Assembly (NCBI GenBank): GCA_031409335.1
Contig: JANNWY010000121.1
Coordinates: 1-34,293, forward strand
DNA: 34,293 nucleotides
Source: Chthoniobacteraceae bacterium
GTDB taxonomy: Bacteria; Verrucomicrobiota; Verrucomicrobiia; Chthoniobacterales; Chthoniobacteraceae
Reading direction: 5' to 3'
In this document: one piece after another, positions 1 to 34,293 of the stretch
Layout: each line of letters begins with the position of its first letter
Numbering within the stretch: the first letter of the stretch is position 1
Notes under the pieces: model-generated
Seen by the model: the letters and a program-made list of their open reading frames with translations, nothing else
Database searches by the model: none
Told to the model about the DNA's origin: nothing
Position numbers and translations under genes: made by a program

Positions 1-45
1 GGGCGCGCGCTCTCGGAGGCGTGGCGCTGCGCGCGCAGGGTCGCT

Positions 46-70
46 TCATGCGGAGGCCCGCATGAGCCAC
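46..70 (-). repeat. REP-like palindrome (GTGGC + TCATGCGG-N4-CCGCATGA on the minus strand), copy 1
   Basis: tcatgcggaggcccgcatgagccac matches 17144-17168 at 22/25 positions; all differences are in the loop. Confidence 0.6.
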
Positions 71-416
71 GGCCTGACGGGCCGCGACAAAGCATTTCCC
101 GGCATCGCCCAGGCTTCCATTGCGCGATGGCCCTGCTCCGCCAGCCGACCGTCGGCCCTTCGGAAAACGATGCTGGACTCTTCCCGAGAAACCCCACCCG
201 CCTAACTCGCTTGTCTCTGAGAGGCTGAGCTTGTCGAAGGCCGCTGCGGGGCAAAAGCCTTCGCTTGCCCGTGGGGAAACGGGGGTTTCGGGTTCAGGGA
301 ACACGTTCATTCTGCAAATGGGGTTTTGCTTTGAGGAACTGCGACCGACAACTAACCGCGCAGGTTTTGCCGACGTTCCCTAAATTCGTCAACATCATTT
401 TTGAAACTTATCGAAT

Positions 417-788
417 GATGCCGGGGAAATGGGGCGCTTTGCTGGGTGACAAAAGGACGGCGCAGGGTGGGGATAACTCTTTGCCGGGTGGCAAAATCAT
501 TTTTCCATCCGTCTTGATGTCTTTGTCACCCTGCAAAATGTCTTTGTTACCCTGCAACGTCATGATGTTAGCCGTCGCGAGCGTTTTCCTTCCTGCGAGA
601 AGTCCATGTCATACCACATGGACTTCTCGCAGGGTGAAAAAATGTTTAAGACAGATGACTTGAATTCTCTGCAGGGCGGATCTGTCTCTATGTCACCTTG
701 CTTCGTCGTCTTGTTACCTGACACGGAAGCCATGTTACCCTGCAAAGAAGCCCTGTTGCCTGAAAAACGTTCCATTCGCGGGAGAAAA
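417..788. repeat. Degenerate 21-bp-period array (about 17 units) with block-wise inverted cores
   Basis: Best units: tttg-ctgggtga-caaa (438), tttg-ccgggtgg-caaa (480), tttg-tcaccctg-caaa (522), tttg-ttaccctg-caac (543), ctcg-cagggtga-aaaa (626), catg-ttaccctg-caaa (731). The tgtyacc-like motif recurs at 524/545/566 and 691/712/733/754. Confidence 0.85.
592..633. repeat. Perfect 18-bp inverted repeat with 6-nt loop at the centre of the array
   Basis: cctgcgagaagtccatgt (592-609), loop catacc, acatggacttctcgcagg (616-633). Confidence 0.95.
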
Positions 789-863
789 TGCCGGGAGTCA
801 ACCGGATGGCACCGATGTTGCTAAGTAGCTCTCCCGTATGTCTGTTCCATGAAACGCAGAAAG

Positions 864-1025
864 CCCTGCGGACTAATCCGCGGGACCTTGTGCCTATCCG
901 ATGGCTGGCGGCTCCGGGAGGGATGTGAAAGCATTCCTTCCCACGCACAACTGGCTGGAGGATGGGTGCGGGGTGGCTGTTCCGGCGACGGGGGCAGGCG
1001 ACAACACTAGTCATTCTGACTAGTG
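864..1025 (+). ncRNA. Putative structured RNA / 5' leader upstream of the FN3 gene
   Basis: Hand-paired stems: 865-872/877-884; 885-899/960-974 (15 bp, 5 G-U); 902-908/951-957; 916-926/931-941 capped by a GAAA tetraloop; perfect 1005-1013/1017-1025. Confidence 0.55.
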
Positions 1026-1050
1026 AGATAGTATCAAATAACATCATGTT

Positions 1051-1668
1051 ATGAAAAAGCCCATAGTCTCACTGAGCTTCGCCAAGCTGGCGGATGCCAA
1101 TCTCGTCACCAAGACGAACCAAATCCTTGCCAGCATGACTGGCAATACCCACTACCCTACTCCGACGCCCACCCTGCCAGTCGTGCAGGCGGCGGCGACG
1201 GCCTTTAGCTCCGCGCTGACGGCGGCGGCGGATGGCGGGAGGACGAAAACGGCGGAGAAGAACGCGGCGCGCAGCGTCCTGCTCGGGCTGCTGCGGAATC
1301 TCGCGCTGTTTGTGCAGCAGCATTGTAATGAAGACCTGGTGGTGCTGCTGACCTCGGGCTTCGACGCGCAGAAGGAGCCGCAACCGGCGGGGGTGCTGCC
1401 AGCTCCGCTTGGGGCGACGCTGACGCGGAGCAAGCTCTCGGGCCAGCTCGACTTCCGGGCGGGATCGGTCGCGAACGCGAGCGCCTATGAAGGGCAGATG
1501 ACCACGGATATCAACAAGAGCGAGTGGGAGGATGTGGGGACGTTCACAGCCACCCGCTTTTCGCTCGATGATCTGAAGCCGGGCACGACCTACTGGGCGC
1601 GCTCCCGCGCGGTCGGCTCTGAGGGGCCGGGGGCGTGGAGCGATGCGGTGTCGGCGATGGCGATTTGA
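1051..1668 (+). CDS. Small protein with N-terminal helical domain and C-terminal fibronectin type III-like domain
   Basis: 205-aa ORF. C-terminus has the FN3 pattern LDDLKPGTTYWARSRAVGSEGPGAWS; N-terminal half is Ala/Leu-rich amphipathic helices; no signal peptide. Confidence 0.8.
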   Translation: MKKPIVSLSFAKLADANLVTKTNQILASMTGNTHYPTPTPTLPVVQAAATAFSSALTAAADGGRTKTAEKNAARSVLLGLLRNLALFVQQHCNEDLVVLLTSGFDAQKEPQPAGVLPAPLGATLTRSKLSGQLDFRAGSVANASAYEGQMTTDINKSEWEDVGTFTATRFSLDDLKPGTTYWARSRAVGSEGPGAWSDAVSAMAI

Positions 1669-1760
1669 CCCGCGGATCAACGCGGATTTCGCCGGGGCAC
1701 GGCCGATCGGTTTTCGCGAACCGGGGGCCGGTCTTCGGTGAGATCCGCGCAATCCGCGGG
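1669..1760 (+). repeat. Long imperfect hairpin with cgcggat/atccgcg repeats directly after the FN3 stop codon
   Basis: cccgcggatcaacgcggatttcgccggggcacggcc...ggccggtcttcggtgagatccgcgcaatccgcggg; several mismatches are G-U compatible on the + strand. Confidence 0.75.
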
Positions 1761-2044
1761 CGCATCGCCGCCATCGGCTGCGGGGAGGTGCCCACCGCCT
1801 TTTGGGCGAACAAGAAAATGAGATCGGCTCCGCGTTCCTCGAACTCACCCGCTACACCGGCGATCCAAGGCGCAGCCTGCGCTGAGAAACCATCGGAGTT
1901 CACACATTTTCGGCAGCCGACATCTGTAACTACAAAGCAGTAGCAAGTTTGCCGCGGGGCTTGCCGCGACTAGGCATTTGCCGCGAAGAATCGACTTTCA
2001 ATGTTTAGCAATCGCCGTTTTCCACTGCCCATCAACGTGCCGCC

Positions 2045-2896
2045 ATGTCCGTCATCCTTCTCAAGCTGAGCTGCCCCGACCGCGTCGGTCTGCTCGCGCG
2101 CGTCTCGAATTTCGTGGCGGAGCACGGCGGCAATTTTATCGAGGTGCATCAGTTCACGGACGCGGATGCGAAATGGTTTTTCACGCGAATGGCGATCGAG
2201 ACGGGGACGTTGCATGTCGGGCTCGGGGAATTTCGCGCGCGTTTTCAGCCAGTCGCCGATGGGCTCGGCGCGGAGTGGACGATCCGCGATGCAGCGGAGA
2301 AAATGCGCGTCGTGCTGATGGTCTCAAAGCTGGGCCACTGCCTGGCGGATTTGCTCTGGCGCTGGCGCTCGGGCGAACTGGCGTTCGAGGTGCCGCTGGT
2401 GATCTCGAATCATGCGGACTTCCGGCAGATGGTGGAGCGCGAGGGCATCGAATTCCACCACGCGCCGATGGCTGCGCCGCAGGAAAATGGGTTCGGGAGA
2501 ATCGCGGAGCGTCTGCGTGAAGTGCGGGCGGACCTCGTGGTGCTGGCGCGCTACATGCAGATCGTCCCGCCCGAAATCTGCGCGGAGTGGCACGGGCGAA
2601 TGATCAACATTCATCATTCGTTCCTGCCGTCATTCGTCGGCGCGAATCCGTACCAGCGCGCGCACGAGCGCGGCGTGAAGCTGATCGGTGCGACCTGCCA
2701 CTACGTCACCGCGGAACTCGACGCCGGGCCGATCATCGATCAGGAAGTGATTTCCGTGGAGCACTACCACACGCCTGCGGATCTGGTGCGGCTCGGACGC
2801 GATTGTGAGCGCCTCGCCCTCGCCCGCAGCGTGCGCTGGCATCTCGCGGATCGCGTGCTGATGCACGGGAAAAAGACGGTCGTCTTCCGGGATTGA
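2045..2896 (+). CDS. purU: Formyltetrahydrofolate deformylase
   Basis: N-terminal ACT domain (CPDRVG), VSKLGHCL, LARYMQI, INIHHSFLPSFVGANPY, ELDAGPII motifs. Confidence 0.97.
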   Translation: MSVILLKLSCPDRVGLLARVSNFVAEHGGNFIEVHQFTDADAKWFFTRMAIETGTLHVGLGEFRARFQPVADGLGAEWTIRDAAEKMRVVLMVSKLGHCLADLLWRWRSGELAFEVPLVISNHADFRQMVEREGIEFHHAPMAAPQENGFGRIAERLREVRADLVVLARYMQIVPPEICAEWHGRMINIHHSFLPSFVGANPYQRAHERGVKLIGATCHYVTAELDAGPIIDQEVISVEHYHTPADLVRLGRDCERLALARSVRWHLADRVLMHGKKTVVFRD

Positions 2897-2904
2897 CGCG
2901 CTCG

Positions 2905-3348
2905 CTAAACGGACGAAAGCGCTTCCTTCACCGCGGCGGGCAGCGGACGCGCGCCATCGCCGCCGAGGCGCGTGTCGATTTCCTCCAGGCGATGGATGAG
3001 ATCGCTCACCTCGCGCCGGGCGTACGGTCCGCCCGCGGCTGCGCAAAAGTGCGTGCGGCAGCCGAATGGCCGGTCGCTGTAGATCAGGCAGCGACCCTGC
3101 GGATCGAGCAGCGGACACGCGCCGTCGGTGCGCTCGGCGACACGGGTGCGGCCGGTGGAGCGCAGCGCTTTTGCGGCGGTGAGCGCTTCGCCTTTGGTGA
3201 GAAACGGCGTGCGGCCGGTGAGCTTGAAGTGGCAGCACTCGGTGCGCAGCGTGCAGGCGCGCTCGATCGGGCGCGTCGCGAGTTCCGCGTAAATGGCGCG
3301 CACTTCCGTGATCGCGGTCGCGGCGTCCGGCGAACGGCGCGGCTTCAC
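2905..3348 (-). CDS. YkgJ-family cysteine-cluster (Zn/Fe-S binding) protein
   Basis: CTLRTECC ... CPLLD...CLIYSDRPFGCRTHFC. Probable GTG start at 3348 overlaps the upstream TGA (GTGA). Confidence 0.8.
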   Translation of the reverse strand: MKPRRSPDAATAITEVRAIYAELATRPIERACTLRTECCHFKLTGRTPFLTKGEALTAAKALRSTGRTRVAERTDGACPLLDPQGRCLIYSDRPFGCRTHFCAAAGGPYARREVSDLIHRLEEIDTRLGGDGARPLPAAVKEALSSV

Positions 3349-3881
3349 TCCGCGCGGTAATGCACACTCAGCGTGCGGAACACATTCGAGCCGTTTTGCG
3401 CGCTGTAGTAGAACAGCTCGATCGCGGTGTTGTTCTTGTTCCACTTGTAACCCACCACGGTCTGCACCACGTCGCCCTCGGGCTCGGTCTTGCGCGCGAT
3501 CAGTTGTCCGGGCCCAAACCGCTTCTCGATGCTCCGCCGAATCTGGCCCATGTATTCGTCGTACTTCGGCTGGTCCCAATTGTCGCGCTGATACTGCAAC
3601 TCGACCTCGGTGAGCGTGCCCGCCTTGAAGAAAAAAACCGTCCGTTTCAAACCCGCCTGCGCGAGCCCCTCGACATCCCAGGCATCGCGCCCGTTCTCGG
3701 TCTTGCGCTTTTCAACGATCGTCGCCTTGGCGTTCTTGAGCAGTCGCTCCAGCCGCTCGCTGGATTCGCCCCAGATGAGGCCGAACGGTGGCTTGATGTC
3801 CTCCGCCCGCGCAGTCGAAACCAGCCACACTGCGGCGAGCAAGCCAGCGGTTGAAAGTGTGAGCGTCGATTTGCGGATCAA
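3345..3881 (-). CDS. Hypothetical exported protein
   Basis: Last ~178 aa of the long minus ORF: signal-peptide-like LLAAVWLVSTARA followed by protein-like sequence; TTG start at 3881 is uncertain. Confidence 0.7.
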   Translation of the reverse strand: MIRKSTLTLSTAGLLAAVWLVSTARAEDIKPPFGLIWGESSERLERLLKNAKATIVEKRKTENGRDAWDVEGLAQAGLKRTVFFFKAGTLTEVELQYQRDNWDQPKYDEYMGQIRRSIEKRFGPGQLIARKTEPEGDVVQTVVGYKWNKNNTAIELFYYSAQNGSNVFRTLSVHYRAE

Positions 3882-27528: not shown

Positions 27529-30500
27529 TCACTGCGCGGGACGCGTGACTTCGAGACGGTAATATTTTTGCGGCTCCGCGGAATACGGCAGCACCGCGCG
27601 GATGACGCGCGTGATGCCGTCGTCCGACACGATCTGCTCGGTTTCATTCGCGTCGCTCCACGTCGTGAAATCCGTGGTGGCGCGGATGTCGAATGTCACA
27701 TCCGTCGCCGCGAGATTCCGGCGGTAGATGAGCACGAGCGCGGGGCCGTCGAAGGCCAGCGCGGGCGCGGCGTTCGAGGCGAGCGCGTCGGTGTTGAATC
27801 CGTATTCGAGCAGATTTCGCAGGCCGTCGCCGTCCGCGTCGGCGAGGTCGCCGGCGATGCTCGCGGTATTCGCATCCGCGCCAAATTTCGCGAAGCGCCA
27901 GCCGTCGATCGGCAGGTCGGTGATCGCCATGTTTGCGGACGCGGGCGCGCCGATGAGGTAGTTGCTGTTGCTCACCAGCGTGAACGTCGCCGTCTCGACG
28001 CCCTCGGCAAGCGTGTCGGCGAGCGGCGTGACGGGCACGTTCACGGACGCGACGCCATCGGCGAGGAAAACCGTCGCGGGCAGCGTGTAATCTGCGTCCC
28101 GCGTGGCGCTGCCGCTCATCGTGAAACTCACCGTCACGTCGCCCATCGTGCTATCGCGCGACACGATGAAATGCGCGGCCACCAGCCCGGTCTCGCCCGC
28201 ATTTGCACCCGGCGCGGTCGTGACGCTGAGCATGGAAATCACGCTCGTGCTGGTCGTGTCGTCGAAAGTTTTCACCTGCCCGTCATCCGCGATGAGCCGC
28301 AGCACGTGGCTGCCCGCGGTGTCGAATGCGACGGTCGTATCCGTCGCATTTTCATCACCAAATGTCGCGGCTCCGGGTCCGCTGAGTTTTATCCAAAGCG
28401 GCGTGACTGTGCCGGGCACCGCTGGCTTCGCGTCGTCGCTCACCGTCGCATTGAGATCGCGCGGCTGCCCGATTCCGCCGCTCACATTCACGCCCGCATT
28501 CACCGCTGCGCCGGTGTTGTTCGTGAGCGCGATGCTTACGTTGGTGAAAGTGGCCACCGCATTCGACGCGCCCGCCGCGTTCGTCACGGCGAGGCCGACG
28601 AGCATCGGGTCCGTCGCGTTTGCGAGCGCGGTCGTGCTCACGAGCGTCCATGCCACGCCGTCCGCCGAGTGGTAGCCGGAAAAATCCGCGCCGCTGCGCA
28701 CGAGCCGCAACCAGCGCGGCGCTCCGAGCGCGGCCGTATTCGTCGCCGTCGCAGCGGTCGCGGCGGTCGCGCGGCGAATCCACGAGAGCCGCGCATCCGT
28801 CGTCACGCCGAGGAATGCCTCGACATCCGCGCTGCCCGTCGCCGTGCGCGCCATGATCCCCGCGCGGCTCGAAGTCGCGCTGCCGCCGCTGATGCTCGCG
28901 ACGCGCGCGATGATTTCCCACGAAGTCCCCGTCATCGTCTGCCGCACGAAATAGAACCCGTCCGCGCTGTTGCTCGAAATGCTCGCGCCATTTCCCGTGA
29001 CCGTGAAAGTGCCGCCATCCTGCGTGTAGCTCCCGCCGCTCGCACCGCTGCCCACGTCGCCGGATTGCAGCGATGCGGCCACCGTGGGCGCGACCGTCAC
29101 GCGCAAATCTTTCGCCGTCTGAAGCGCGCCATCACTCGCTGTGAGCCGCAGCACATGCACGCCAGCGGCGGAAAAACGCGCGCCGGTTTCGAGCTCGGCG
29201 GGGTTGTCGAATGTGACCGTCCCCGGCCCGCTGAGTTTCGTCCAGGTCGTCGTGACTGCGCCGGGCGCGAGCGGTTTTCCGTCGTCGCTCGCAGTCGCTT
29301 CGAGTAGCAGGCCCGTCGCGATATTTGGAATGGCGACGTTCGTCACCGTCGGGCTGACGAACGTGATTTCCGGCGCGAGATTCGTGTCGTCGTCGGCGAT
29401 GGTGACGGTCGCGCTGTTCGGCGCGCCGATCGCGTAAAGCCCGGCGGCCAGCGTCGCGATGACGGTCTCGGGGGATTCCGGCGCGGCATCGTCCAGCGGC
29501 GCGACGATCACCGGCGCGGAAGACGATCCGGCGGGAATCAAGACTGCCACAAGGATCGCGGCGTAGTCGCTGCCCGCCGTCGCCGTGCCGGTGATGTTCA
29601 CATTCACCGAAAGTGCCGCTGACGTGGAGCCGCTGCGCGCGATCGTAAAAGTACCCGTGTCCCCGCCTTCGCTCGCGGCGGCGTCGCTCGCGGTGATCTT
29701 CACCGCAGGCTCGTCGTCGCCGATGGTCACGGTCGCGACGCTCGGTGTGCCGACGGTGTATGCGCCGCTCGCGATGGTGAGTTGCACGGATTCATTTGCC
29801 TCGCCCACCAGATCGTCGAGCACGGCGACGGGCACGACGACGGAGCTTTCGCCGACGGCAAAATCCGCGGTGCCCGCGATGGTCGCGTAGTCGGTGCCGT
29901 TCGTCGCGGTGCCTGCGATCGTGAGGTTCACGGTGAGCGCGCTGGTCGTGGCGCCGGTCCGCGCGATCGTGAATGCGCCATCATTCGCGGGCTCGGCGGC
30001 GCTCGCATCGGTCGCCGCGATCGTCACCGTCACGGCGTCGTCGTCGATGATCGTGTAAGTGAGCGCGGTGTTCGGACTGAGCGTCGCGCCGACCGCGTTC
30101 GAGAGCGCGAGGACGATCGTTTCGTTGGTCTCCAAATCCGGGTCGTTGAAGATCGTGTTCGGGATGATCTTTACCGTTTCGCCGATCGCGAAAGTGAGCG
30201 TGCCCGCCGCGAGCGTGAAGTCCGCGCCGACCGTCGCGTTGCCGCCGGTCACGGCGAAATCCACCGTCACCACCGCCGTCTGGGCGGTGCTTAAAGCGAC
30301 CGCGATTTGCGCAGGCGACGCGCTTTCACCGCCGCTGCCCGTCGCACCCGCAAAGCCCACCGTCGCGGCAGGCGGCGCGTCGTCGTCGGTGATCGTGACG
30401 GTGTGCGAAACGCTCCCGAGTTTCGCGCCGTTGGGATTGCGCAGCGTGATGACGACGGTCTGATTCGGCTCATCGAGCGTGTCGTCATTGATCGTGAGCG

Positions 30501-33500
30501 GGACCGCCTGCGCCGTCTCGCCCGCCGCGAAAGTGAGCACGCCGTTCGTCGTCACAAAATCCACATTTCCGCCAAGCGCCGTCCCGCCATTCGTGTACCA
30601 CTCGACCGTCACCTCGCCCGCCTGCGCGGCACTCAGCGTCACGTTCAAATTCACCGTGCCCGCGCCTTCCGCAGCGCTGCTCGAGGTCGGTGAAAATGCG
30701 ACCGTCGGCAGCGTCGTTTGCGCATCGGGAATGTAGCGCGTCGCACTGCCAAGACCAAGGCTGTAGGCCGCGTCGGGAGCGATGTTGAGGATCAGCGTCT
30801 CGACGCCTTCCGACAAAACATCGGCCAGCATCGGCACATCCACGTAAGCCCCAGTCGCGGCTGCGGCGATCGTCACGGTGCCGCTCGGCGCGGTGAAATC
30901 CACACCGCTCGTGGACGTGCCGCCGAGCGTGTAATTCACCGTCAGCGCATTCGTCGTCGCGCCCGTGCGCGAGATGAAAAACTTCGCGAGGCTGCCCGCC
31001 GTTTCGGTGAAAGAATCGTCGGTAGTCGAGGCGTTCACCTGCGGCAATTCGTCGTCCTCGATGTGCAGCGTCGCCGCGCGATCCACCGCGAGCGAGTAGG
31101 CCGCGTTCGGCGCGAGCGTGAGCGTCACGGTTTCGTAGCCCTCGTTTTCCACATCCTGAATCGGCGCAACCGTCACCGTCGCCGTCGCATTTTTCGCGAT
31201 GCTCAAAGTCCCCGTCAGCGTCGTGAAATCCACGCCGTTCGCCGCCGTTCCGCTCATCGTGTAAAGCACGTTGATGTTGCCCGTGCCGGTGCCGGTCGTC
31301 GTGATTCTGAACGTCCCGTTCGTCCCGCTTTCCTTTGCCGAAGCCGTCGTGCTGACCGCGACATACGGCACGTCGCCGTTGTCCGTGATCGTCACCGTCG
31401 CATCGCCCGGGGAGCCGACCGCGTAGCCCGTGCCACCGCGCAAATACAGCCGCGCGGTCTGCGCGGGTTCGCCGATCCCATCATCGACTGGCGTGATGAC
31501 GATCGTGCCGACGCCGCTCCCTGCCGGGATCGTGAGCACGCCCGGTAGCGCCACGTAATCCGTCCCGTGCAGCGCGCCGCCCGTGAGCCCGTAATTCACC
31601 GTGAGCGCCGCCGCCGTGCTCCCCGTCCGCGTGATACTAAATACGCCGGGATCGCTCGCCGCCTCAGCCGCCGCCGCATCCGTCGCCACCACGCTCAAGA
31701 TCGGTTCATCGTCATCGTGAAGATTTGCGGTGCCGCTGTTGTCCGCGGTCGCCGTGGCGCGGATGTAATTCGCGTTCGTCGAAATCGTCAGGATCACGGT
31801 TTCCATTCCCTCGATCGTCGCGTCCTGATTTGGCGTCACATTCACCAGCACACTCGATGCGCCCGCGGGGATGGTGATCGTCGCCGGGATGCTCGCGTAG
31901 TCCGTGCCATTCCCCGCCGTGCCCGTCATCGCGACCGCCACGCCGAGCGCGCTCGTCGTCGGCCCGATGCGCTCGATCAAAAACTGCGCGACGTCCCCGC
32001 CTTCATCCGCATCGCGATCCGCCACGCGCATCCGCACGAGCGGCTTCGTGGTGTCGGAGTCGGCGATGAAAAGCGTCGCCGTCGCGGTGCCGAGCACGTA
32101 GGTCGTCGCGGGCTGCAATTCGACAATCACCGTCTCGAAGCTCTCCGCCGCCGTGTCATCGACCGCCGTCACCACGAGATCGACGAACGCCGCACCCGCC
32201 GCGATCGTCGCGATGGTCCCGAGCGCGGGCGTGTAGTCCGTCGTGCCCGTCGCCGTGCCGCTCGGCGAGAGAAAATTCACGGTCAACGCCGCCGTCGTCG
32301 CACCCGTCCGCGAAATCCGAATCACCCCGGTATTCGCGCCCTCCGCGCAATCCGCATCCTGCACGAACAGGCTCACGACATTCTGCTGGGTGCCGGTGAA
32401 ATTCACCGTCGCATTTGGCCCGACCGTCACCGTCGCGCTGCCGGTCGCCGTCAGCGTGTGGGCAAAGAGTTGCGCGACGACCGAGTGCGATCCCGCGGCC
32501 AGGCCAGTGAGCGCGTAGCTGCCATCGCTGTTCGTGTAAGTGTCGCGCGTCCCCGCCGTCACGCGCACATGCTGGAGCGGCAGCGCGCCGTCCGTGATCG
32601 TGCCCGAGATGCGAAACGTCCCCGGCGTGCCCACCGTCACAATCACCGACGCGCTCGCCGTGCGCCCTTTCATATCCGACGCCACGCAGCGCACGCGATA
32701 CACTCCCGCCGTCGTCCACGATTTCGTCACGACCGCGGAGTTCGCGGTGCTGAACGACTTGTCGCCAAAGTCCCACGCATACGCGAGCACGTCGCCATCC
32801 GGGTCGGTCGCGGTCGCGGTGAAAGTGACCGTCGCGCTCGCGGCCACGCTCGTCGCGCTGGCGGCGAGCGAAACTGCGGGCGTCTGATTGGTCGGGAAAG
32901 GGCCGGTGTTCACCGTCACATCCACGCTCGGCGGCGAGGTCGCATTTTTCGCCACGGGCGTGATGTGGATGTCGCTCTCCACGTCGGAGAAAGTGCGCCC
33001 GATCACGATCGGCGCGTCCGTTTTTCCATCGGTGGAACCCGGCGTGGTATCGAGCAAATGCGAGCCGCCCGCGCTCGTCGCCCACGGATCCCAATGCAGA
33101 AACACGCCGCCCTGCACCCACGCATTGCTCGCGAATTTCTGCCGCAAATCCACCCAGTAATCGCGCGCCGCATCCTTGCGCACTTTCAGCGCATAGCGCA
33201 GCCGCGGATCGAGCCGCGGCTGATCCATTTGGTAAATGCGATACGTTCCGCTCTGCCCGACACTGTGGACGAACGAAGTCGGCATCCAGTTGAGCAAATT
33301 TTTGTGGCACGCATTGAACTGCAAATCGCCCGCGCTCGCGCTGCCCATCGTGTCAAAGTTGTCGCCGTACTCGACATGCGCGCCGCCGCCGATTGGCGAG
33401 CCATTCGTCGTGCTCCAAAAGTTCGCGTGCCACAGCCCGAAGTTGTGTCCGTATTCATGCACCGCCACGCCCGTGCCCGTGCCGGATTTCAGCCAGCAGC

Positions 33501-34293
33501 CTTTGCCGCCGACGTATGCCTGCCCGCCGAAACTGCCCGGCGAGCCGGTGTAAATCACCGTGTCGAAATCGAAATTCGCGGGGTCGAAACCCGCCGCCTT
33601 CGACGCGATGCGCGCGTCGTTCAGCACTTCATACGCGCTGCCCGTGTCCTGATCCTTGTACCACGCCTCGCTGCGCGGCAGCACGATGATCGGCGTCACC
33701 GTCGTGAGGAAAGTCATCGCGCCAAAACTCGAATCCACAAACCAGTCCTGCACGTTTTTCCCGAGATCGTGCCCGTCCTTTTCGCTCACGCTTTCCCGGC
33801 GCGTTTCCGGAAAAGCGATGCGCATCAGCACATGCGTCTTGTAGCCCGTGCTCTGCGTCGCCGACGGCGGACTCGTGGGTTTGCTCGGCCCGCCATTTCC
33901 GCCCTCCGCCGCGAGCTGATCCTCCAGCGCGTGGATGTGCCCGCCCGAGCAAAGGAAGATGAATTTGCCACCAGCCTCGACGACCGGCTGCTGTGGCGCG
34001 ACCGCATCGAAAGCGCCGTCCGCATTGCGCGGCGCGGGCGTCTCGATGCTGGAAACCGGACACACCTCGACGACCGCGCGCGAGTTCCCCACGCCCTCGC
34101 GCAATTCGCGCCCGCTCACAAAACCATCCGCATCCTTCGCCATCACCGTCCGGCGACGCGTGAGGTTGTTCGGATGATTCGGAATCTCGCCCGGCTCCAC
34201 GACGCGCAATGGTCGCTCATCCACCGCCATCACATCATCCACCGCGATGCCGACGATGCACGCGCGCTCCGTCGTCTGCTGCGCCAGCTTTGC
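27529..34293 (-). CDS. Giant secreted zinc metallopeptidase with PKD, Calx-beta repeats and C-terminal accessory domain (5' end lies outside the window)
   Basis: Frame is open to the window edge; HEYGHNFGLWH plus FDTMG Met-turn (metzincin); YAWDFGD PKD motif; many GTAxxGxDY...DDxxxExxET Calx-beta-like repeats. Confidence 0.88.
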   Translation of the reverse strand, partial: AKLAQQTTERACIVGIAVDDVMAVDERPLRVVEPGEIPNHPNNLTRRRTVMAKDADGFVSGRELREGVGNSRAVVEVCPVSSIETPAPRNADGAFDAVAPQQPVVEAGGKFIFLCSGGHIHALEDQLAAEGGNGGPSKPTSPPSATQSTGYKTHVLMRIAFPETRRESVSEKDGHDLGKNVQDWFVDSSFGAMTFLTTVTPIIVLPRSEAWYKDQDTGSAYEVLNDARIASKAAGFDPANFDFDTVIYTGSPGSFGGQAYVGGKGCWLKSGTGTGVAVHEYGHNFGLWHANFWSTTNGSPIGGGAHVEYGDNFDTMGSASAGDLQFNACHKNLLNWMPTSFVHSVGQSGTYRIYQMDQPRLDPRLRYALKVRKDAARDYWVDLRQKFASNAWVQGGVFLHWDPWATSAGGSHLLDTTPGSTDGKTDAPIVIGRTFSDVESDIHITPVAKNATSPPSVDVTVNTGPFPTNQTPAVSLAASATSVAASATVTFTATATDPDGDVLAYAWDFGDKSFSTANSAVVTKSWTTAGVYRVRCVASDMKGRTASASVIVTVGTPGTFRISGTITDGALPLQHVRVTAGTRDTYTNSDGSYALTGLAAGSHSVVAQLFAHTLTATGSATVTVGPNATVNFTGTQQNVVSLFVQDADCAEGANTGVIRISRTGATTAALTVNFLSPSGTATGTTDYTPALGTIATIAAGAAFVDLVVTAVDDTAAESFETVIVELQPATTYVLGTATATLFIADSDTTKPLVRMRVADRDADEGGDVAQFLIERIGPTTSALGVAVAMTGTAGNGTDYASIPATITIPAGASSVLVNVTPNQDATIEGMETVILTISTNANYIRATATADNSGTANLHDDDEPILSVVATDAAAAEAASDPGVFSITRTGSTAAALTVNYGLTGGALHGTDYVALPGVLTIPAGSGVGTIVITPVDDGIGEPAQTARLYLRGGTGYAVGSPGDATVTITDNGDVPYVAVSTTASAKESGTNGTFRITTTGTGTGNINVLYTMSGTAANGVDFTTLTGTLSIAKNATATVTVAPIQDVENEGYETVTLTLAPNAAYSLAVDRAATLHIEDDELPQVNASTTDDSFTETAGSLAKFFISRTGATTNALTVNYTLGGTSTSGVDFTAPSGTVTIAAAATGAYVDVPMLADVLSEGVETLILNIAPDAAYSLGLGSATRYIPDAQTTLPTVAFSPTSSSAAEGAGTVNLNVTLSAAQAGEVTVEWYTNGGTALGGNVDFVTTNGVLTFAAGETAQAVPLTINDDTLDEPNQTVVITLRNPNGAKLGSVSHTVTITDDDAPPAATVGFAGATGSGGESASPAQIAVALSTAQTAVVTVDFAVTGGNATVGADFTLAAGTLTFAIGETVKIIPNTIFNDPDLETNETIVLALSNAVGATLSPNTALTYTIIDDDAVTVTIAATDASAAEPANDGAFTIARTGATTSALTVNLTIAGTATNGTDYATIAGTADFAVGESSVVVPVAVLDDLVGEANESVQLTIASGAYTVGTPSVATVTIGDDEPAVKITASDAAASEGGDTGTFTIARSGSTSAALSVNVNITGTATAGSDYAAILVAVLIPAGSSSAPVIVAPLDDAAPESPETVIATLAAGLYAIGAPNSATVTIADDDTNLAPEITFVSPTVTNVAIPNIATGLLLEATASDDGKPLAPGAVTTTWTKLSGPGTVTFDNPAELETGARFSAAGVHVLRLTASDGALQTAKDLRVTVAPTVAASLQSGDVGSGASGGSYTQDGGTFTVTGNGASISSNSADGFYFVRQTMTGTSWEIIARVASISGGSATSSRAGIMARTATGSADVEAFLGVTTDARLSWIRRATAATAATATNTAALGAPRWLRLVRSGADFSGYHSADGVAWTLVSTTALANATDPMLVGLAVTNAAGASNAVATFTNVSIALTNNTGAAVNAGVNVSGGIGQPRDLNATVSDDAKPAVPGTVTPLWIKLSGPGAATFGDENATDTTVAFDTAGSHVLRLIADDGQVKTFDDTTSTSVISMLSVTTAPGANAGETGLVAAHFIVSRDSTMGDVTVSFTMSGSATRDADYTLPATVFLADGVASVNVPVTPLADTLAEGVETATFTLVSNSNYLIGAPASANMAITDLPIDGWRFAKFGADANTASIAGDLADADGDGLRNLLEYGFNTDALASNAAPALAFDGPALVLIYRRNLAATDVTFDIRATTDFTTWSDANETEQIVSDDGITRVIRAVLPYSAEPQKYYRLEVTRPAQ

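Follow-up and report, generated by a model that had tools for sequence, protein, structure and literature searches.

A helically phased 21-bp array upstream of a helical-module and FN3 gene family, with a predicted role as a binding site for the gene product

We analyzed a 34,293-nucleotide stretch of DNA from a Chthoniobacteraceae bacterium (contig JANNWY010000121.1 of assembly GCA_031409335.1; hereafter the window), which is contig C121 of the genome denoted G000. Close to its start lie a degenerate, non-coding tandem array of about 18 units of 21 bp (417-795, no strand assigned), a match to the sigma-54 promoter consensus (806-822, + strand), a folded leader (833-1050, +), a gene for a 205-aa protein (1051-1668, +) and a long hairpin (1669-1760, no strand assigned). 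An earlier note on this DNA had described the array, leader, gene and 3' hairpin, and upon rechecking the coordinates all four were located where it had placed them. Its remark that the non-coding part is more AT-rich than the flanking genes also held for the array, the GC content being 50.7% there and 65-73% in the gene and flanks. The neighbors are ordinary, with purU at 2045-2896 (TIGR00655 above cut-off) followed by a convergent CxxCxxCC-domain gene at 2905-3579. A 2237-aa open frame occupies the far end of the window (27529-34242, - strand).

The lag-21 identity of the array was 0.453, compared to 0.250 ± 0.023 in 2000 shuffles (maximum 0.34), and it was the top lag-21 stretch within the 34-kb window. 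Thus, the phased 21-bp array of the earlier note is real, but its phasing includes one 1-nt slip: the units stand in two orientations on one shared 21-nt grid, and the slip arises because the reverse-complement register moves by 1 base near 585-627. The central perfect palindrome claimed in the same place proved to be an 18-bp inverted repeat inside the array (592-633, no strand assigned), whose arms at 592-609 and 616-633 pair perfectly but are split by a 6-nt loop. An Rfam scan of window positions 1-2100 returned no family at gathering score. Upstream of the array, a 118-bp element at 208-325 is 92% identical to G000:C190:318-434; these are its only two copies in the genome, each standing some 90-100 bp before an array-gene module (single-module in one case, doubled in the other; see below), and the element was not found in 150 family genomes.

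The 205-aa protein, as judged from its ORF, Pfam and AlphaFold, consists of a three-helix N-terminal module (about residues 1-110) followed by an FN3 domain, and has no signal peptide. The Pfam fn3 match was weak (E 0.005); the AlphaFold model (pLDDT 97.7) showed three long helices and an FN3 domain, and the latter was supported by structure comparison (Z 15.5, rmsd 1.5, 89 aligned). The N-domain alone matched only generic bundles of four helices (talin/vinculin/FAT type; at best Z 9.0, rmsd 3.3, 95 aligned), and a Foldseek search with it gave no match at E ≤ 0.001. No RHH or HTH fold was among the top 50 fold matches listed, a list whose membership does not settle absence; a weak fold match to TasH was not significant (E 4.9), and no Pfam Nop domain matched among 129 family members. 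PDB sequence searches returned FN3 matches only, NCBIfam (window protein only) and PADLOC (four proteins) gave no matches, and PHROGs matches were to tail proteins and covered the FN3 half only. A kinship with DUF6261/HagB was considered, but the Pfam scan of the 129 members gave no such match and the literature search no relevant paper. The net charge is about 0 (median 0 for the helical module), and the module carries conserved basic residues (K/R5 83%, K/R70 94%, R74 83%, R/K82 63%). A hydrophobic N-terminal stretch was found in 4 of 150 members, partial correlations between N-domain and FN3 were discordant between pair sets, and a homodimer prediction run without controls scored 0.00 and carries no weight. 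The family is large and unnamed, with 4327 clusters at E ≤ 0.001, part of them FN3-only matches; a phylum-wide draw gave matches in 19 of 301 genomes, mostly via FN3 alone. At G000:C299:30143-30622, directly after an ABC transporter gene, lies a 5'-truncated paralogue (84% identical) without an array and without the N-terminal 75 residues.

The earlier note had proposed that its four elements form one module, and this was borne out for the array and the gene but not for the leader or the hairpin. The leader folds well in the window (z = -5.4 for 780-1050) but is locus-specific by folding and homology search: no homologue was found in any fetched locus, and leaders as a class do not fold beyond chance (median z -0.4; below -3 in 12 of 101), on which grounds a conserved leader RNA was rejected. 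Metagenome scans for its close relatives yielded none close and two distant fragments. The hairpin also folds strongly (z = -7.6 for 1660-1770), but folding and a genome-wide arm search placed its outer arms in a dispersed family of inverted repeats with 8 arm pairs in the genome (36 arms versus 1 in a shuffled genome). This family occurs at window positions 1671-1760 and on seven other contigs (C15, C35, C106, C164, C208, C299 and C317), with arms built of short repeats and 39-116 bp apart. Among 149 family genes, only that of the window is followed by it, while 60 of 149 relatives have an ordinary terminator-like hairpin there instead; the hairpin was therefore rejected as a module part. Thus, with the leader not conserved and the hairpin dispersed, neither belongs to the module.

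We then asked how regularly the gene family is accompanied by an array, using 153 distinct genes comprising automatic loci, 40 regions picked from the family-genome match list and 80 loci of 180 relatives, a sample that is biased to the window's family and in which kin are not independent. Where at least 600 bp of upstream sequence was available, as it was for 142 single-module genes, an array preceded the gene in 122 cases; the other 20 lacked one by the chosen cut-off. Lag 21 was the top lag, at 0.5 or above, in 104 of these 142 upstream regions and in only 1 of 123 downstream regions, so that the check proposed by the earlier note, 21-nt autocorrelation in the flanks of homologues, came out in favor of the association. 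Furthermore, whereas the note had named homologues without arrays and leaders as grounds for giving up the module, upstream arrays were found in Verrucomicrobiota, Bacteroidota, Acidobacteriota and Polyangiaceae, with Sphingobacterium, Lacibacter, Chryseolinea and Luteolibacter among the genera that carry the family. The periods were 21, 22, 41, 42, 43 and 44, which corresponds to 10.25-11 bp per turn; some relatives span 20-22 or 41-44. The 106 arrays that we segmented had a median of 14 units and ended a median of 214 bp before the gene start; L164, a 7-mer repeat, is among the 106 and was left out of array-similarity analyses. Several 22-bp arrays with near-identical units (L124, L127 and L171 of Lacibacter, and L058) have been recently homogenised. 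Nine Sphingobacterium loci (L144, L146, L149, L153, L155, L158-L160 and L162) have a phage-like-looking layout around the module, with an upstream excisionase-type HTH-like ORF (by eye; no Pfam match) and a downstream DUF5675 gene and small membrane ORF. Just ahead of the conserved start, an apparent N-terminal extension that stays in frame and repeats W-D-G or Y-D motifs was seen at L019, L022, L025-L027, L031, L033, L052, L064, L072 and L073, and several members of this extended subclade have a collagen-like gene downstream.

Directly after the window's array, 245 bp before the gene start, lies the match to the sigma-54 -24/-12 consensus (GG-N10-GC), with GG at 808-809 and GC at 820-821 and a predicted transcript start near 833. 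With the promoter downstream of the array, the array would lie upstream of, and hence off, the mRNA if this promoter is used. Leaders were scored against the consensus with weights of our own choosing and a cut-off set after the results of a first scan. A strict match was found in 40 of 102 non-Bacteroidota leaders, compared to 1 on the antisense strand and an expectation of 1.2 from shuffled sequence. In the doubled family, 12 of 40 leaders matched (0 antisense). The match usually stands 47-125 bp before the start (32 of 42), which makes the window's 245 bp atypical. G000 furthermore contains an RpoN-box ORF and 15 ORFs with a GAFTGA-like motif. These counts speak for a reading in which a sigma-54 activator or some other regulator, encoded by a separate gene, uses the array as its upstream activator region, the array-linked gene being only a target. 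However, we consider this reading quite unlikely. Just 2 of 43 Bacteroidota leaders have a match, though most such loci have arrays. Promoter and array are not positively associated (array/no array 26/12 with promoter versus 49/11 without), and the distance between them ranges from -11 to 439 bp without significant phase (Rayleigh z 2.4, n = 27). No neighbor gene family, regulators included, recurs across clades (25 largest clusters, flanks of 0.5-3 kb). Moreover, the two gene-linked 21-bp arrays of G000 are unrelated in sequence (similarity 0.34, null 0.35), and an activator region would leave the doubling of the array period, to which we now turn, unexplained.

A doubled form of the family is encoded at G000:C190:1115-2182, where a gene for a 355-aa protein follows a 41/42-bp array and a sigma-54 match, and was found in 38 of 151 genomes of the window's family. 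The doubled and single-module families are homologous (hhalign 81.6%; HMM cross-matches at E 1e-8 to 8e-6). It is the helical module that is duplicated, module 1 matching module 2 at 92.6% in hhalign, while module 1 does not directly match the single-module profile (3.5%). From 30 automatic loci and 20 picked regions, we obtained 36 doubled genes whose N-terminus was complete and whose upstream sequence was long enough; 27 of these had 41-44-only arrays, 2 had 21-periodic arrays and 7 had none. Among the 142 single-module genes, in contrast, 110 had 21-bp arrays, 12 had 41-44-only arrays and 20 had none. Arrays with only the longer period thus made up 27 of 29 in the doubled family and 12 of 122 in the single-module family, a difference for which the Fisher p of 2e-18 is too strong because the contrast is one clade versus another. 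Searches for a second, independent module doubling among longer proteins, which were weak and crowded, found none. Thus, in a single phylogenetic contrast, the array period follows the number of helical modules: 21 bp with one module and 41-44 bp with two. Since the period doubles where the helical part doubles, the repeats are likely landing sites for the family's own product rather than structured RNA.

The sequence properties of the arrays were examined next. Consensus units were dyad-symmetric in 77 of 106 arrays (p<0.05 versus column permutation), although among 41/42-nt consensus units just 10 of 30 were significantly symmetric at the same level. The 10.5-nt component of column conservation was the strongest, and unit conservation ran at 0.63-0.80 across all columns, leaving no variable block of guide size. 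At all 20 positions tested and at any distance from either axis, bases formed Watson-Crick pairs within their own unit as often as with other units. Duplex sites should behave in this way and local hairpins should not, and per-unit RNA hairpins were accordingly rejected. An alternative that we regard as unlikely, but less so than an activator region, is that the array works at the level of RNA or single-stranded DNA: units of opposite orientation would pair into long degenerate duplexes, to be measured or bound by the protein. The window's array does fold strongly (z -8.7 sense, z -5.2 antisense), the longest perfect stems average 10.8 compared to 9.0 in the column-shuffled null and reach at least 15 bp in 11 of 53 arrays, the orthologous G090 copy of the central stem carries one compensatory change (along with one G-T and one A-C change), and two turns of an A-form duplex would likewise match a period of 21-22. 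Against this, the arrays showed no hairpin or within-unit covariation, with G-T and A-C mismatches similar in number; the folding excess over the null was alike on both strands in 50 arrays (-0.358 vs -0.332 and -0.355 vs -0.330); and the promoter, where found, is downstream of the array. Thus, neither covariation nor strand asymmetry lends backing to an RNA reading of the array.

We also asked if the arrays might encode a heptad-repeat peptide partner: an open frame runs through 81 of 106 raw arrays, sense open frames slightly outnumber the null (75 compared to 60), and the translations look heptad-like. However, each of the three codon positions takes a share of 0.33 of the differences from the consensus, synonymous changes make up 0.25-0.29 whichever of the six frames is read, and stop depletion reflects an avoidance of TAG/CTA in every frame. 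In addition, 1-nt slips occur in 40 of 106 arrays, all 62 indels are single-base (the gap penalty disfavors longer ones), and periods of 22, 41, 43 and 44 exist. The codon-position, synonymous-fraction, stop-codon and indel tests thus refute the peptide partner, to which we attach next to no probability, and a coding array was rejected: the arrays are non-coding.

Arrays are not confined to the gene. G000 contains nine clear arrays of the 21/42 type, of which three stand before a family gene (C121, C96 and C190) and six are gene-less (C214, C228, C259, C258, C163 and C55; those on C228 and C259 are 79% alike). The earlier note had held that similar arrays throughout the genome, unlinked to the gene family, would speak against a module, and the six gene-less arrays in part fit that objection. 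G090 carries the window's array in two near-identical copies, neither with a gene and each in an unrelated context (L187:1-330 and L200:150-300), and in both the match to the window stops at the TGG of the -24 box. Such copies, along with a multi-copy and patchy family (61 of 151 genomes of the window's family, up to 16 matches per genome) that has no conserved neighbors across clades, and some freshly homogenised arrays with an identity of up to 1.0, would fit a selfish dispersing cassette of gene and array, or an array that is a by-product of repeat amplification, with no binding role. We give this reading as little credence as that of an activator region. Across four phyla, the sequence turns over but the period remains a helical multiple, and the protein has no transposase or nuclease match in Pfam, NCBIfam, PADLOC, PHROGs or fold searches. 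Furthermore, plasmids gave no tblastn match, phages three partial matches only, and viral contigs no relative of the window protein.

Taken together, a helical-multiple period, two-fold symmetry every 10.5 bp, a lack of RNA covariation and the tracking of period with module number make duplex DNA sites for the family's own product the simplest account. We therefore predict, tentatively and with close to even confidence, that the protein binds its own helically phased array. The array would then be a line of putative binding sites, with mirror-symmetric units two helix turns apart. One helical module may cover one half-site of about 10.5 bp, in which case a pair of single-module proteins would span 21 bp and a pair of double-module proteins 42 bp. 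Phased binding-site arrays need same-face spacing (PMC4551981), and the protein could coat the array on one face of the helix with its FN3 domains pointing outward. Selection would then act on spacing and not on sequence, so that the unit sequence drifts. By coating the array, the protein may control its own promoter (in many Verrucomicrobia-type loci one of the sigma-54 type) or assemble a nucleoprotein scaffold; arrays without a gene may be additional sites or stranded copies. The conserved basic residues of the helical module count in favor of binding. Counting against own-array binding are the near-neutral charge, the lack of a recognized DNA-binding fold and the lack of residue-base covariation, no protein column tracking array sequence beyond descent (top p 0.49), as well as the 12 single-module genes with 41-44-only arrays, the 20 of 142 without an array and the 6 of 9 G000 arrays without a gene. 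A bolder extension, which we think rather unlikely as a whole, is a widespread modular protein-DNA lattice in which helical modules would serve as rulers of one DNA turn each and polymerise on self-made symmetric arrays, displaying Ig-like FN3 domains every 7 nm, with module number setting the spacing; the unexplained 20-21/41-nt bacterial satellites would thereby gain a cognate protein.

Bacterial repeats of constant 20-21-nt (and 40-41-nt) size are a puzzle in print (PMC8161180). At the locus described here, such arrays are connected with a defined gene family, with a candidate promoter and with a numerical rule (21 bp for one module, 41-44 bp for two), so that a single protein and two oligonucleotides would suffice to address the question. 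If the proposed binding is true, DNA-binding modules of a new class, each with its own ruler, would also offer a building block for ordered display on DNA.

Several known systems share parts of this arrangement. Plasmid iterons are phased arrays of sites next to the gene for their cognate protein. Likewise, oriCII of V. cholerae with its protein RctB has tandem sites whose helical phasing matters, and resembles the present loci in having helically phased tandem sites beside a cognate-protein gene (PMC4551981). Unlike iteron origins, however, the present module has no Rep or winged-helix match, no plasmid matches and many copies per genome, and its units, unlike iterons, are self-symmetric and fast-drifting. 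In the partition systems parC/ParR and sopC/SopB, a centromere-operator array lies upstream of a small gene whose product coats the array and controls its own promoter. The present module resembles these in its array upstream of a small gene but differs in that no partition NTPase recurs among the 25 largest neighbor clusters; Pfam and the top 50 fold matches listed showed no RHH or HTH match, and to our knowledge, the FN3 domain and the scaling of period with module number have no counterpart in partition systems. Upstream activator sequences of sigma-54 promoters comprise two or three sites. The -24/-12 match downstream of symmetric sites recalls them, but here the units number about 14, neither their distance nor their phase to the promoter is fixed, and arrays are also present where no sigma-54 match is found. 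In TIGR-Tas systems, 36-nt units with conserved box C/D repeats and variable spacers accompany a Nop-domain protein (PMC12045711). Both have 5-15 units of short period arrayed next to a single small gene, and in both the repeats vary from locus to locus (PMC12045711), but the present units are of 21 nt and degenerate throughout, with no edge or loop repeats and no variable spacers.

A literature search, with most subscription journals outside its reach, found no description of the pairing of array and gene family, and the accessible part of PMC6749651 held nothing relevant to it. The nearest relatives are the repeats of Subirana and Messeguer, 20-21-nt and related 40-41-nt bacterial repeats of constant size, variable sequence and a function given as unknown (PMC8161180). 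Compared by description only, these are like the present arrays in being non-coding, of 20-21 nt with a 40-41-nt class, unconserved in sequence and spread over many bacterial groups, and the present arrays in turn have the 20-21 (or 40-41) nt size, variable sequence and non-coding nature by which such repeats are defined. They differ in that the accessible sections of the paper concern Bacillus and propose RNA roles, and describe no partner gene, dyad symmetry or promoter link (PMC8161180). The module of array and gene falls outside the iteron, partition, TIGR and structured-RNA classes.
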